From: a virus
Taxonomy: Duplodnaviria; Caudoviricetes
Strand: one strand, 5' to 3'
Length of the DNA stretch: 64,000 nucleotides
Virus record (IMG/VR): IMGVR_UViG_3300012983_000033
Span: 1 to 64,000 of that record
In this document: positions 48,534 to 60,992 of the stretch, piece by piece
How positions within the stretch are numbered: the stretch's first letter is position 1
Layout of the letters: every line of letters starts with the position of its first letter
Notes under the pieces: model-generated
Told to the model about the DNA's origin: nothing
The model's input: only the letters and a program-made list of their open reading frames with translations
The model's database searches: none
Translations under genes and position numbers: made by a program

Positions 48534-48797
48534 CCGTAAACCTTTATTATTAAAACGAACATTTGTTCACTCATATAAACGAACATTTGTTCACTTCATC
48601 TTGCCCGGGCGACCCGCTTTAGCGAGTTAAAGCGTTAAAGCATAAGGAAGCCCCGCTTTCACGCTTTAAAGCGTTAAAGTGTCAAGTACCACAATGAGCA
48701 AAGTCCCATTAGTTGGACTATGTATATATGATGTATTGTATATTAGGTGTAAGTATGTTATACTATGTATGTAATCAAGAGAGATTGAAAGGAAGTA

Positions 48798-49256
48798 ATG
48801 ATAATGACAAAAGCAATATACTTTGATATGGATGGCACAATCGCAGACTTATATGCAGTTAATGATTGGTTGCCTATGTTAAGAGCCTATGACCCTAAAC
48901 CCTATGCACAGGCAAAACCACTTGTAAATATGCAAGTGTTAGCAAGGTTGTTAAACAGATTGAAAGCAAATGGTTATCACATTGGTATTATCAGTTGGTT
49001 ATCAAAAGAGAGTACAACAGAGTATGACAATGCAGTAACAAAAGCAAAGATTGAATGGCTTAACAAACATCTTAAAAGCGTTGAATGGGATGAAGTCAAC
49101 ATAGTTGCTTATGGTACACCAAAACAGAACATCGTCACTTATAACAATGGTATCTTGTTTGATGATGAACTTAATAATCGAGTTAATTGGGTAGGTACTG
49201 CATACGATGTTGATAACATCATTGAAGTATTAAAAGGGGTATTACATACAATGTAA
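48798..49256 (+). CDS. HAD-superfamily phosphatase (5'-nucleotidase-like)
   Basis: YFDMDGT motif I and ILFDD motif IV. Confidence 0.82.
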   Translation: MIMTKAIYFDMDGTIADLYAVNDWLPMLRAYDPKPYAQAKPLVNMQVLARLLNRLKANGYHIGIISWLSKESTTEYDNAVTKAKIEWLNKHLKSVEWDEVNIVAYGTPKQNIVTYNNGILFDDELNNRVNWVGTAYDVDNIIEVLKGVLHTM

Positions 49257-49387
49257 TATCCCTATTGCCCTACAAGGGCGGGCGGTGATGAAACACGCGG
49301 GTCAGTTGTAATTATAATGATAAAAAGACTTGACAAAAAGATATATATATGATATAATATATATGTAATAAGAAAGGGGTGTTATAT

Positions 49388-49585
49388 ATGACAGAACTTG
49401 AAAAAATGATTGATGTACTTGAAAAAAGTGGATATAGAAGAAACAATGGCTATTTTGTGCAATATGGTATTGAAAGAGATACTCTCACAATTTATAAGGA
49501 AGTTAGGGTAGATTGGTATTCTACTGAAACAATTGAAACAAATTTTGAGTATAACAAAATGGGTGAATTAGTTGAAATTTGGTAA
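49388..49585 (+). CDS. Hypothetical protein
   Basis: Promoter 49330 and RBS. Confidence 0.7.
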   Translation: MTELEKMIDVLEKSGYRRNNGYFVQYGIERDTLTIYKEVRVDWYSTETIETNFEYNKMGELVEIW

Positions 49586-49597
49586 AGGGTGAAAAAT

Positions 49598-49780
49598 ATG
49601 GAAAAATATCAGAAAATCAATAATCAAATTCATAAAGTAAATTATAAAATTTTTAAAAAGGCAAATGAAATCTATTACGGAAATTTTCCGAAATTTTTCA
49701 AAAATTTTCTTTTAAAGAAATATTGCAAAAAGATGAAAATTTCTGTTGATGATTTTATGATGTGGGAAAAATTTTGTTGA
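49598..49780 (+). CDS. Small basic hypothetical protein
   Basis: GGGTG RBS; ends inside a hairpin. Confidence 0.6.
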   Translation: MEKYQKINNQIHKVNYKIFKKANEIYYGNFPKFFKNFLLKKYCKKMKISVDDFMMWEKFC

Positions 49781-49966
49781 ATTTTTCCCAAAAATCTGCC
49801 CGCTTTAGCACTTTAAAGCGTTAAAGTGCTCGGGCAGAAAATACCGAACATTTGTTCGGTTGCGTTAAAAAATTTTTTTACATTTTTTCTAAAAAAAGTA
49901 TTGACAAAATAAAATTTATGTGTTATAATAATATCAAGATAAAGATAAAAAAGGAGATAAAAAATT

Positions 49967-50125
49967 ATGAAAAAAATTCTTAAAGTGATAATTCTTCTTG
50001 TGGCAATTGTTGGAACTTTTTGGTACACTATGGATAATTTGCACATTACAGTAAACACAGAAGAAAAGGGTGCAATGGTGGAATGTTTTGGTCAAGTGTG
50101 GTATCACGAAGTAGAAATAATTTAA
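49967..50125 (+). CDS. 52-aa protein with N-terminal signal or TM segment
   Basis: Promoter 49901 and AAGGAG RBS; MKKILKVIILLVAIVGTFW. Confidence 0.7.
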   Translation: MKKILKVIILLVAIVGTFWYTMDNLHITVNTEEKGAMVECFGQVWYHEVEII

Positions 50126-50204
50126 AAAATTTCTACAAAAGGTATTGACAAGTCGGACAATATATGATATAATAATTACAGAAAGAAACGAAAGGAAGAT
50201 AAAA

Positions 50205-50345
50205 ATGTTTACAGTAGAAGTTAGAAAAGATTGGCACTCAGATTGGGAACTTTGGGGAACTTATTCAACACGAAATGAAGCAAACGAAATGGCAATAATT
50301 GCTCTTGAAGAAAATGTTGATGTTTTCGTTGAAGAAATTAAATAA
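50205..50345 (+). CDS. 46-aa hypothetical protein
   Basis: Promoter 50145 and AAGGA RBS. Confidence 0.68.
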   Translation: MFTVEVRKDWHSDWELWGTYSTRNEANEMAIIALEENVDVFVEEIK

Positions 50346-50437
50346 AAAATTTCTTCAACTTTTTTCCAAAAAACTATTGACAAATGCCCGCTTTTATGAT
50401 ATAATAGTATCAAGATAAAGGAAAGGAAATGATAAAT

Positions 50438-50566
50438 ATGACACTTACAAGAAACGAAAAACACTATCTCACAGAAATGCAGATTGATTGGGTTGAAAGA
50501 TTTGGAAGAACTCCCACAAAAGAAGAAATGGAAAATGCAATAAAAAATTTAAGAAAAAGGGGTTGA
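50438..50566 (+). CDS. 42-aa hypothetical protein
   Basis: Promoter 50377 and RBS; TGA stop overlaps the next -35 TTGACA. Confidence 0.65.
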   Translation: MTLTRNEKHYLTEMQIDWVERFGRTPTKEEMENAIKNLRKRG

Positions 50567-58804: not shown

Positions 58805-58957
58805 ATGGATAGACAGTTATTAGTTGAATGTCCCATACAAGACCCAAGTTGTCCTTATTGGGATTGGAAAACCCATAAATGCACAATGCCTTTATCAGGT
58901 TTACATCCCATAGATGAATGTGATGATTATTATGCAGAAGTGGGTGATGAAGAATGA
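58805..58957 (+). CDS. 50-aa Cys-rich protein
   Basis: Promoter 58739 and AAGGAG RBS; ECP..SCPYW..KC..EC. Confidence 0.6.
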   Translation: MDRQLLVECPIQDPSCPYWDWKTHKCTMPLSGLHPIDECDDYYAEVGDEE

Positions 58958-59136
58958 CAAGAGAACTTGCAAACAAAGCAAGTCTTGCTTTGCAGGGTGT
59001 TGACGATTTTCGTATGTTCATAGATGAAATTGAAATACTTATTGATGAATGTGAAGTCTTTGACTTTCGTGATAAGTTAATGAATTTTCTTGATAAAGAA
59101 CTTGAACGCAGAGAAGAAATTTTAAAAAATTTATAA
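58954..59136 (+). CDS. Small helical hypothetical protein
   Basis: ATGA overlap with the upstream gene. Confidence 0.65.
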   Translation: MTRELANKASLALQGVDDFRMFIDEIEILIDECEVFDFRDKLMNFLDKELERREEILKNL

Positions 59137-59204
59137 AAAACACTTGACAAACAATGAAAAGTGTGATATAATATATATGTAATAAAGAAAAGGAGATGCT
59201 AATT

Positions 59205-59471
59205 ATGTCAAGAACTTATTATTGCCCTAAAGAAAGACTTGTGTTTGTATCAGAGGAAGATACAAGAAACTTTTTCTTCGAAGAACAGGTTTACACTTCT
59301 ATGGAATACGAAGGTGATTTTGAAGATTTTCTGTCTGATAAATACACAAGAGCAGATATTTTCAGAATGACAGATGAAGAAAAAGCAGAAGTTCTCGCAG
59401 ATTACCACGAAGTGCTTTTTGAACAGTGGTGTGATGAAGAACTCGAAAGTTGCGACATCTACGCAGATTAA
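59205..59471 (+). CDS. Highly acidic hypothetical protein
   Basis: Promoter 59144 and AAGGAG RBS; strongly E/D-rich. Confidence 0.72.
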   Translation: MSRTYYCPKERLVFVSEEDTRNFFFEEQVYTSMEYEGDFEDFLSDKYTRADIFRMTDEEKAEVLADYHEVLFEQWCDEELESCDIYAD

Positions 59472-59635
59472 ACGAAAAGGTGTAAAGGGATACCCCTTTA
59501 CACCGCCCGGGCATTCGTCATATTGACTAAAATTATGCGGTCGCCGCATTGTAAGTTTGGTTAATATGACGATTGACTTTTCTTTTATTATGGTGTATAA
59601 TAGTATTGTAATCAAGAGAAACGAGGTAAAGAATT

Positions 59636-59806
59636 ATGTTATCTGTTGAAAATGTAAGTTATGACTTAATGTTAATCTCACTTGCAAAACAATTGGGTGC
59701 AGAAGTCGCAGTGGAGTTTGCAGAATTTGTTGTTGCTTCTGGTGACCATTTCGCAATTCAAAAAAAATATGAAGAAATTTTAAAAAACCACTTGACAAAC
59801 ACATAA
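59636..59806 (+). CDS. 56-aa hypothetical protein
   Basis: Promoter 59573 and GAGG RBS. Confidence 0.55.
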   Translation: MLSVENVSYDLMLISLAKQLGAEVAVEFAEFVVASGDHFAIQKKYEEILKNHLTNT

Positions 59807-59852
59807 AACTATGCTATAATATATATGTAATCAAACGAAAGGACTTGATAAT

Positions 59853-60152
59853 ATGGCACTTAATATCAACATTGAAAAAAAGACAGAAGATGTCACTTAT
59901 TTTGGTGATATTCGCAGAGGGGAGTTCTTCCTTTTAGGTGGCAAGGTTTTTGTGAAACTTGAAGAATTTTTTATCACAGACGAAATCATAACAGAACTTG
60001 AATACCAACACGATTTGCAACACGAGTATGACATCGACTCTAACAGGTATAATTGTTGGTTGGTTGGTAGTGAATGTGATTATCGCTATTTTAATAACAC
60101 TACAATAGTTGAAAGAGTTAATATTGATATGAATGTGAGGTATGCAGAATGA
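59853..60152 (+). CDS. Small beta-rich protein, family A
   Basis: FGDIRRGEFFLLGGKVFVK. Confidence 0.7.
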   Translation: MALNINIEKKTEDVTYFGDIRRGEFFLLGGKVFVKLEEFFITDEIITELEYQHDLQHEYDIDSNRYNCWLVGSECDYRYFNNTTIVERVNIDMNVRYAE

Positions 60153-60466
60153 GAGCAACAGGAATTGTAAGAAGAATTGATGATTTGGGAAGAGTTGTAA
60201 TCCCTAAAGAAATTCGCAGAGAAATGAGAATAAGAGAGGGCGATCCTCTTGAAATCTTTGTTGACAAACGAAATAATCTTGTTTGTTTTCAGAGATACGA
60301 TGTTGAAGAAAACTTCATAGAAGAACTGAAAAGAATTTCTGATTCAATTTCAGAACATTATTGTTATAGTGACAACAAAGAAAATGTTCAGATTATTAAA
60401 ATGGCAATCGAAGAAATTAAAAATCAGTTTATCGCAATAAAAGAAAGAGAGGAAAACGAAATATGA
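60149..60466 (+). CDS. AbrB/SpoVT-family DNA-binding protein
   Basis: MRATGIVRRIDDLGRVVIPKEIRR..IREGDPLEIF matches the SpoVT/AbrB N-domain. Confidence 0.9.
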   Translation: MRATGIVRRIDDLGRVVIPKEIRREMRIREGDPLEIFVDKRNNLVCFQRYDVEENFIEELKRISDSISEHYCYSDNKENVQIIKMAIEEIKNQFIAIKEREENEI

Positions 60467-60717
60467 AAATTCAGAGAAAAAGAAAAGAAAAAGTTTTATT
60501 AAGAGATCTTTCTTTTGGTGATGTATTTGAATATAAAGATTATTTCTATATGGTCATCAACTTTGCAGAAATCGTCGACTGTTCAATATGTGGTGAAGAA
60601 CTTGATGTAAATCACTGTTATAATATTGCTTGTGTTGACTTGCAGGAAGGCGATGTTTATAATTTTAATGGTTGTGATGAAGTATACAAAGTTAATGGCA
60701 AGTTCATAGAAGATTAA
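60463..60717 (+). CDS. Small beta-rich protein, family A, with CSIC insert
   Basis: LSFGDVFEYKDYFYM...CVDLQEG. Confidence 0.7.
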   Translation: MKIQRKRKEKVLLRDLSFGDVFEYKDYFYMVINFAEIVDCSICGEELDVNHCYNIACVDLQEGDVYNFNGCDEVYKVNGKFIED

Positions 60718-60992
60718 GAAGTCGAAAGACTTCTTTTTTCTTATATCAAAACGAACAAATGTTCGCGCGTGCCCGGGTAAATTGCCCGGGCGTTTTTGTA
60801 GTATTGCCCGGGCCGAAAAAGTCAAATTCTATCCCATTATATTATATCATATCCACGCTGTAAAGTCAATAGGTAAAAAAAATTTTTTGCTTTAGCGAGT
60901 TAAAGTAGTAAAGCGAACATTTGTTCGTCAAGTGGCGTCCCCTCGTCAAATTTTGCCCTACCTGTGGCGCGTGTCAAATTTTAATTCTGATC

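Follow-up and report, generated by a model that had tools for sequence, protein, structure and literature searches.

LexA boxes in described phages and in the virus analysed here

On temperate phages, LexA boxes serve as operators in promoters and make induction dependent on DNA damage. The operator of the Firmicute LexA (DinR) protein, also called the Cheo box and described in Bacillus subtilis, SPbeta and Clostridium/Clostridioides, is a 14-bp palindrome with an A/T-rich spacer and C/G flanks. The same palindrome was found in nine near-identical copies in a 64,000-nucleotide stretch of DNA (the window) from a virus of the Caudoviricetes (Duplodnaviria; IMG/VR record IMGVR_UViG_3300012983_000033). 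The 139,671-bp record, of which the window forms the first 64 kb, has ends that overlap by 67 bp and therefore represents a circular assembly. The nine boxes were located in the gaps of an array of small early genes. We tentatively favour the possibility that they are putative high-affinity docking or sink sites for host LexA in untranscribed early gaps, and not SOS operators.

The consensus of B. subtilis LexA is CGAACATATGTTCG, as listed in Table 1 of PMC8270828 after Au et al. 2005, and PMC4551915 gives CGAAC(n)4GTTCG as the LexA motif. For clostridia, GAAC-N4-GTT[CT] has been used as a search motif, and the C. difficile recA operator oligonucleotide has the spacer AAAT (PMC4234289). Known LexA operators lie on or directly beside the promoter of the gene that they repress and are usually off consensus; the SPbeta boxes, for example, have three to five mismatches and are still bound by LexA at 4-12 nM (PMC8270828). 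In the phage family described here, by contrast, the boxes are near-perfect, number 6-15 per phage, follow terminators, never lie on a promoter and have a G+C-rich partner palindrome.

The temperate tectivirus GIL01 is also a Firmicute phage with LexA boxes and relies on host LexA, which acts as the repressor together with gp7; the boxes are located within promoters P1 and P3 and belong to the lysogeny switch (PMC4551915). A further GIL01 protein, gp6, is described in PMC6182141 as a truncated LexA homologue that serves as an activator. The present phage differs from GIL01 in that its boxes avoid promoters and that neither lysogeny genes nor a gp6 or gp7 homologue was found; tblastn searches with gp6 and gp7 (AJ536073) against the genome and the loci of 26 relatives gave no match better than E 0.32. 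The best functional analogy is the lytic phage phi29, whose genome has sites for two host proteins, parS for Spo0J and 0A boxes for Spo0A, and which couples infection to the state of the host (PMC2731898). In both phages, a genome without lysogeny genes bears a number of sites that match the consensus for a host protein, but the 0A boxes repress promoters and sit there and at the DNA ends, whereas the LexA-type sites here lie in untranscribed gaps. Words resembling parS and cre also occur in relatives of the present phage. The CtrA sites of Alphaproteobacteria phages, discussed as “lytic deferment” in PMC9437464, are likewise conserved sites for a host global regulator found by comparative genomics, although the regulator and the phylum differ. 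A literature search, with subscription journals outside its coverage, returned no account of LexA-box arrays in the early regions of lytic phages.

Number and placement of the boxes

The early-gene array (47834-61811, plus strand; 14 kb) comprised about 35 small open reading frames (ORFs), called with TAG read as glutamine, together with 21 perfect TTGACA-17-TATAAT promoters and hairpin terminators. Terminator-like sites in the array numbered 43, compared with 10.2 in shuffled sequences. The window contained nine copies of the 13-mer CGAACATTTGTTC, where 0.01 would be expected by chance, and none of 100 shuffles reached this number; the copies started at 48556, 48580, 49845, 50833, 51767, 53939, 55737, 60753 (minus strand) and 60914. 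The count given in an earlier note on this DNA, which had described at least nine near-identical LexA boxes, was thereby confirmed, and the observation is real and strongly non-random. All nine copies fell within 48556-60927 (12.4 kb), and the rest of the 139,671-bp record contained no extra copy. The full box was CGAACATTTGTTCG, a perfect CGAAC-N4-GTTCG, in seven of the nine copies, and the final letter was A in the other two. On the plus strand, which is the direction of transcription, the spacer was ATTT in eight boxes and AAAT in one. Four other GAAC-N4-GTTC words were found in the whole genome, every one with a G+C-rich spacer. All nine boxes were intergenic in the ORF map of this analysis, though the intergenic share of the region was 36%. 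The sequences around the boxes were not conserved, so the boxes are not plain duplicates of some longer element.

Boxes 1 and 2 (48556-48569 and 48580-48593, plus strand; both CGAACATTTGTTCA) formed a tandem pair 24 nt apart; the first stood 17 nt past a hairpin (48512-48538), and the G+C-rich palindrome GCCCGGGC began 10 nt downstream of the second. Box 3 (49845-49858, plus strand) was located 8 nt past a strong CTGCCCG...CGGGCAG hairpin, and the -35 of a perfect promoter began 42 nt downstream. Box 4 (50833-50846, plus strand) followed the terminator stem 50792-50816 by 16 nt; it was preceded by the half-site CGAACAAAC and had GCCCGGGC 4 nt downstream, with the CC[CG]GG core at 5 nt. Box 5 (51767-51780, plus strand) had GCCCGGGT upstream and GCCCGGGC 2 nt downstream, with the core at 3 nt. 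Box 6 (53939-53952, plus strand) lay 13 nt past the terminator stem 53899-53925 and was immediately followed by cGCCCGGGC, and box 7 (55737-55750, plus strand) lay 10 nt past the stem 55703-55726. Box 8 (60752-60765, minus strand), the sole copy with AAAT on the plus strand, was found 16 nt past the stem 60716-60735 and was followed by three CCCGGG palindromes. Box 9 (60914-60927, plus strand) came immediately after the element CTTTAGCGAGTTAAAGTAGTAAAG at the array end. Degenerate boxes were also seen on the plus strand: AGAACATTTATTCA and CGTACATTTGTTCG (47589-47635; starting at 47589 with three mismatches and at 47622 with one) in the 509-nt spacer at the start of the array, and CGAACATTTGTTTT (57620-57633; two mismatches) with a GTTT-type arm.

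Identity of the motif

To characterise the motif, 84 sites in relatives were chosen on the eight core letters GAAC/GTTC only, which left six positions free. These positions were occupied by C in 77 sites, A in 65, T in 60, A in 66, T in 47 or C in 31, and G in 66. The resulting consensus, CGAACATA(T/C)GTTCG, was equal to the published Bacillus LexA consensus. A survey of 81 genomes from the bacterial class of the one host hint revealed LexA_DNA_bind over the cut-off in 61 of them. Thirty lexA genes were examined, and 27 had at least one site with seven or eight of the eight core letters within 200 nt upstream. The spacers of the 55 lexA-upstream sites included ATAT (8), ATTT (7) and AAAT (6), and CGAACATTTGTTTG stood upstream of lexA in at least six genomes (L306, L307, L308, L311, L313 and L315). 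Together with the three reports cited above for the motif, these sites agree with the earlier identification of CGAAC-N4-GTTCG as the Bacillus/Clostridium LexA operator, and the assignment of the phage word to this operator is well supported on sequence grounds. The match implies that the binder would be LexA or something with LexA specificity. A host with a different LexA motif, which the earlier note had named as grounds for rejection, was not found at the class level, and two candidate host bins were without detectable LexA. The same note had taken the constant spacer as a pointer to a phage protein, but ATTT or AAAT occurs naturally in 13 of the 55 clostridial lexA-upstream sites. Perfect CGAAC...GTTCG was present in 71 of the 93 phage GAAC-N4-GTTC cores compared with 4 of the 55 lexA-upstream sites; judged by their letters, the phage sites deviate less from the ideal palindrome than do the operators of the hosts.

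The palindrome could alternatively be an RNA or DNA hairpin that forms part of the terminators and is not a protein site. GAAC...GTTC was indeed found inside the terminator stems of some relatives (L128:9816, L138:12337 and L136:5998), and two copies in the present phage had 7-bp stems. In the other seven, however, the box alone formed a hairpin of only 5 bp, and the hairpins folded apart from the terminator, downstream of its T-run. The arms were also invariant: among 512 perfect 5-N4-5 palindromes in nine early regions, 71 had CGAAC arms, whereas the seven compensated one-letter variants totalled 14. The scarcity of compensated variants and the short, separate stem indicate recognition of the word by its sequence and not by a hairpin fold. 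A search of 47000-63000 against Rfam gave only four sub-threshold chance matches, to eukaryotic families. We consider the hairpin explanation hardly credible.

Geometry of the gaps

The geometry was counted for 76 boxes in nine contigs, comprising this phage and its relatives. A T-run ended 10-14 nt upstream of 32 boxes, compared with 750 of 18,000 random positions (4.2%). CC[CG]GG (CCSGG) started 0-12 nt downstream of 41 boxes, with a mode of 6 nt. A consensus-like promoter was located within 400 nt downstream of 49 boxes, and the distance from the box to the next -35 had a median of 66 nt, with 35 of the 49 at 40-110 nt and one at 20 nt or less. No box overlapped a promoter on either strand (0 of 76; 0 of 9 in this phage). 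In the present phage, the boxes at 50833, 53939, 55737 and 60752 began 10-16 nt past terminator stems, and the others were located past the hairpin 48512-48538 or past strongly folding CTTTAG/TTAAAG/TAAAG elements. The placement described in the earlier note held: the boxes were off the promoters; they stood beside GCCCGGGC, with CC[CG]GG starting 2-34 nt downstream in seven of nine; and the -35 of the next consensus promoter, placed there at tens to more than 100 bp downstream, started 42, 158, 61, 67 and 66 nt after the box. All 12 genome copies of GCCCGGGC were inside the early array (48603-60813; at 48603, 50851, 51783, 52253, 53355, 53954, 54817, 55758, 57582, 59505, 60784 and 60806), as were 16 of 18 CCCGGG copies. 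GCCCGGGC trailed hairpins or boxes at a fixed short distance, and in relatives GCCCGGGC, GTCCGGGC or GGCCGCCGG-type words were found at the same place.

This geometry bears on the classic form of SOS control, in which LexA would repress the early promoters and DNA damage would induce the array. The motif itself is that of a LexA operator, and temperate Firmicute phages have such boxes in promoters, as described for GIL01 (PMC4551915) and SPbeta (PMC8270828). However, no box touched a promoter, so the boxes are not classic SOS operators, and the suggestion that the array is SOS-inducible in this sense failed. In addition, most of the 21 perfect promoters had no nearby box, and no integrase, S24 repressor or other lysogeny gene was found. 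We therefore regard classic SOS control of the array as very unlikely.

Several other elements were observed in the same gaps. Triple 8-bp units (CTTTAGNN / NTTAAAGN / NNTAAAGN) occurred at 48615-48688, 49799-49836, 50861-50889, 54786-54817, 56270-56300, 57595-57620, 58245-58285 and 60886-60913; they formed strong hairpins (49788-49862: -35 kcal/mol, z -8) and were also present in the relatives L138 and L129. By eye, the CTTTAGCAC...AAGTGCT elements resembled CIRCE, the HrcA site, but this likeness was rejected because most copies were GCGCTTTA, which is not a CIRCE arm. The word TTCGTCA, the reverse of the 0A-box-like TGNCGAA, was found in the array at 53366, 54004, 57092, 58292, 58691, 59514 and 60924, five times directly after CCGGGC. 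Its reading as a Spo0A 0A box after GCCCGGGC was rejected because the word is too short. The array, with 10.4% of the genome, accounted for 7 of the 23 copies of this word. Two leftward near-consensus promoters (50945-50917 and 60869-60841, minus strand; 11 of 12 matches, extended TG) were located in spacers beside boxes and directed against the array, with no obvious ORF downstream.

Conservation of the array in relatives

A 214-aa early protein used as the query retrieved 15 IMG/VR loci, and six further contigs with arrays were found by means of a composite pattern (box, 0-12 nt, CCCGGG). The six pattern-retrieved contigs had five early proteins in common with the window at 44-62% identity, and by this protein evidence they are true relatives. 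Arrays of 6-15 boxes each were present in six uncultured relatives, in the same region. The perfect CGAAC-N4-GTTCG word occurred 10, 6, 14, 12 and 10 times in G006-G010, respectively, and the reversed-pattern control gave 0 in each. In the long contigs the boxes were confined to one 7-10-kb early stretch (10968-20822 of 69.6 kb in G006 and 91855-98881 of 180.8 kb in G007). G002 had three boxes and G001 one perfect and two near boxes, all in the early region, and in G003-G005 boxes were not above the control and no array was seen. Conservation across relatives is thus a direct observation, as are the identity of the motif, its confinement to the early array and its geometry. A scan of IMG/VR with the bare 14-mer gave at least 119 matches, mostly single-copy, and was uninformative. 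The spacers in relatives were ATAT (28), ATAC (18), GTAT (6), and then ACAC, AAAC, AAAT and others, and were mixed within a single genome; the invariant ATTT spacer of the earlier note therefore stood for this phage, at eight of nine boxes, but its invariance is peculiar to it. At the array ends of some relatives (G006 9866-9893, c550 11035-11061 and G008 11614-11640, in oriented early-region coordinates), two boxes overlapped in head-to-tail order, offset by 13 nt (CGAACATATGTTCCGAACAAATGTTCG type).

Cultured phages were more distant. Megablast of 48000-56000 against the phage collection gave no match, and the terminase was at most 45% identical to those of the cultured phages Enterococcus H1 and VRE9_4, Geobacillus E3 and Alicyclobacillus KKP_3916. 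The nearest cultured phages were Enterococcus phages, with 36-38% identity in one early protein, and they had neither the boxes nor GCCCGGGC. In Enterococcus phage H1 (L143; OP534061.1 91006-100396), the palindrome TGWAAGCGCTTWCA was present in five perfect copies, every one of them in the early array, against 0 for the reversed control. Palindromes of the GTGAAATATTTCAC type also recurred in the H1 early array. G002 (L138) contained two perfect TGTTTCACGTGAAACA 16-mers (10659-10674 and 11549-11564) beside its LexA-type boxes. We take the H1 word TGWAAGCGCTTWCA to resemble the CcpA cre consensus and the G002 word TGTTTCACGTGAAACA to resemble the parS consensus.

The comparison of relatives also bears on a different function, in which the boxes and the G+C-rich palindromes would be junctions for the shuffling of early gene cassettes, that is, short identities where relatives recombine; protein binding would be compatible with this role. 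T4-type phages, with their promoter-stem-loop cassettes, offer a resemblance. The early regions of the relatives were mosaics of 150-1700-bp blocks. Among 409 block ends from five relatives, 26 were within 10 nt of a box centre compared with 9.8 +/- 3.2 at random (maximum 23 in 500 trials; 2.7-fold), and 34 were at CCSGG compared with 12.1 +/- 3.5 (2.8-fold), whereas no enrichment was found at -35 hexamers (10 vs 12.8) or T-runs (13 vs 11.2). These 409 ends came from 20 ordered pairs and are not independent, however, and a conserved island beside diverged DNA ends alignments by itself. Contigs of other sequencing runs also began or ended at boxes: record 15 of X4 spanned 50834-51763, record 25 of X5 ended at 60764, record 4 of X1 started at 60766, and X5 had loose ends before 50824 and 51766. 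The runs listed for this phage numbered 24, all Logan contigs with shares of at most 0.21 and no RNA run among them, and the joints had short sides (20-43 letters, mostly below 30) that were flagged as unreliable, so they were not relied on. Moreover, an identity of 14 bp is short for homologous recombination, and the use of the LexA consensus as the junction word in every genome would be left unexplained. We consider such a junction role improbable.

Candidate phage-encoded binders

A protein encoded by the phage itself could bind the boxes, as an element of early-region control or architecture; the candidates would be a winged-helix paralogue, the AbrB-like protein or a LexA mimic comparable to GIL01 gp6, and such a protein could possibly also occupy host SOS operators. 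A precedent exists in gp6, a truncated LexA homologue that binds DNA according to PMC6182141. The nearly invariant spacer and orientation in this phage, the partner palindrome fixed 6 nt from the box and the scarcity of LexA in the candidate host bins are in line with a phage protein. The array also encodes two MarR/PadR-like winged-helix proteins (54357-54731 and 61470-61811, plus strand) and an AbrB/MazE-type (SpoVT-AbrB) DNA-binding protein (60149-60466, plus strand; Pfam 4e-11). The first winged-helix paralogue is a candidate binder of an intergenic palindrome, and the second was predicted by AlphaFold2, with a pLDDT (predicted local distance difference test) score of 92, to form a long helix and a C-terminal winged helix-turn-helix. 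Profile searches of the PDB matched the paralogues to AdcR and MarR (E 3e-5), and Foldseek matched them to PadR, MarR and LmrR. A relationship of this family to LexA was considered and rejected because the PDB profile and Foldseek matches were those of generic MarR/PadR/AdcR proteins; no LexA entry was present in the 52 PDB sequence matches or among the listed Foldseek matches.

Against a phage-encoded binder stands first the motif, which equals the LexA consensus at all 14 positions, six of them unselected, and equals the lexA operators of the class; if LexA specificity were not involved, this would be a striking coincidence. Furthermore, no phage protein tracked the boxes. The winged-helix family, which consists of early proteins of about 110 aa in two to four copies per phage and also occurs in L128, L151, L186, L205 and others, was found in the box-less L133, L134, L140, G004 and G005. 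The paralogous pair e55875/e57836 (55875-56246 and 57836-58219; 123 and 127 aa with a Lys-rich tail, encoded by a 296-nt DNA repeat that is 72% identical) was also considered as a box binder. Its family was present in most box-bearing relatives, including G002, and matched only unnamed viral clusters in the Atlas, but the pair was rejected because the family is missing from the box-bearing G007. The genome had no match to PF01726 (LexA_DNA_bind; none at E<=1), PF00717 (S24 peptidase) or PF00589 (integrase), and no other lysogeny gene was found in it. Homologues of gp6 and gp7 were likewise not found, and the fold matches are those of a generic winged helix. A phage-encoded binder is therefore rather unlikely, in our assessment.

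Proposed role of the boxes

The recurrent layout of a gap runs from the terminator over about 10-16 nt to the box, then over about 6 nt to the G+C-rich CCSGG palindrome and over about 40-100 nt to the next promoter. Because the segment between a terminator and the next promoter is the only untranscribed DNA of the array, a bound protein would be least disturbed there. In the role that we tentatively favour, host LexA would dock tightly on the phage DNA at places where RNA polymerase will not sweep it off. The nine consensus sites per genome (6-15 in relatives) would be multiplied by genome replication and, taken together, could form a sink to which the weaker operators of the chromosome would lose their LexA. 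Titration of host LexA, one of the two options in the earlier note, would be plausible. When bound to DNA, LexA is protected from cleavage by RecA* (PMC4234289), so the effect of a sink would be SOS derepression without damage. The outcome would be that SOS functions are turned on without DNA damage or that the behaviour of the early region depends on the LexA level. Alternatively, the boxes may act in cis on termination or insulation, which their tight spacing to the terminators would allow. We infer that LexA binds the boxes, that the host possesses LexA and that binding has an effect. The phage group is of a large, apparently lytic type, with gut and rumen Firmicutes as the apparent hosts.

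Several observations weigh against a docking or sink role. The orientation bias (8 to 1 here; ATAC 18 vs GTAT 6 in relatives) is not explained by a symmetric dimer, and a sink of nine sites is small until the genome has been replicated. The phage encodes several uncharacterised DNA-binding proteins of its own, namely the two winged-helix paralogues and the AbrB-like protein, and the three array-less relatives (G003-G005) indicate that the trait is dispensable. We know of no place in LexA biology for a fixed G+C-rich partner palindrome. The remaining points concern the host. The only host hints came from a scan of genome contigs, in which fragments of relatives were binned into two metagenome-assembled genomes (MAGs), and binning is weak host evidence. 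Neither of the two MAGs had LexA_DNA_bind over the cut-off, and among their close relatives (G011-G052) the domain was found in no more than 6 of 21 for one MAG and 1 of 21 for the other. No box was located upstream of recA in either MAG, and perfect boxes were at the control level in both (2 vs 1 and 3 vs 4). If these LexA-poor lineages were the real hosts, host LexA could not be the binder. The G011-G052 genomes are small, low-GC lineages that look like LexA-poor clades of gut and rumen Firmicutes, in a class with 61 of 81 positive. The G011 contig L291 had a box pair in a phage-like context. The fragment L286, from the LexA-poorest clade, contained no box in 16.6 kb, as would be expected if boxes were linked to host LexA, although this is one case only.

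Other features of the array and the genome

Most ORFs of the array had no family match; the exceptions were a HAD/5'-nucleotidase, a phrog_20187 nuclease-like protein, the AbrB/MazE-type protein and the two winged-helix paralogues. Elsewhere, the genome encoded virion proteins, the large terminase, a PolIII-alpha replicase, DnaB, topoisomerase subunits, RecJ, UvrD, ligase, RNase H and an NAD module. At the array end, four GTCAAATTTT words and about ten AGCTGC/GAGCTGC repeats were found in 60930-61120, with the same arrangement in L128 at about 11.6-11.8 kb; these repeats could be an origin or a physical end. A segment of about 1 kb (61812-62800), where the plus-strand genes switch to the minus strand, had no convincing ORF and was of odd composition, G+C-rich with CCCTTTGGG-type words.

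Significance

Described here is a phage family of lytic type with many near-perfect LexA-type boxes off the promoters and in a fixed place after terminators. For annotation, this is a warning against inferring SOS-inducible genes from a perfect SOS box in a phage. A direct test of the idea is feasible, since the spacers are short and clonable and Bacillus or Clostridium LexA is easily purified; the cultured Enterococcus phage H1 provides a parallel, cre-like case. If LexA does bind, the virus would drain or read the master repressor of the SOS response through its DNA alone, without a protein of its own, and the boxes would be connected with the words in related phages that resemble operators of other host regulators. 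It is possible, though doubtful at present, that large lytic Firmicute phages more generally place operators of better-than-native quality for host global DNA-binding proteins in their early gaps (for LexA in this phage and its rumen and gut relatives, cre/CcpA-like in H1 and parS-like in G002), and that these serve as protein sponges or state sensors. In the case of LexA, replication of the phage genome would let such a sponge switch on SOS functions (RecA, repair and division arrest) in the absence of DNA damage.

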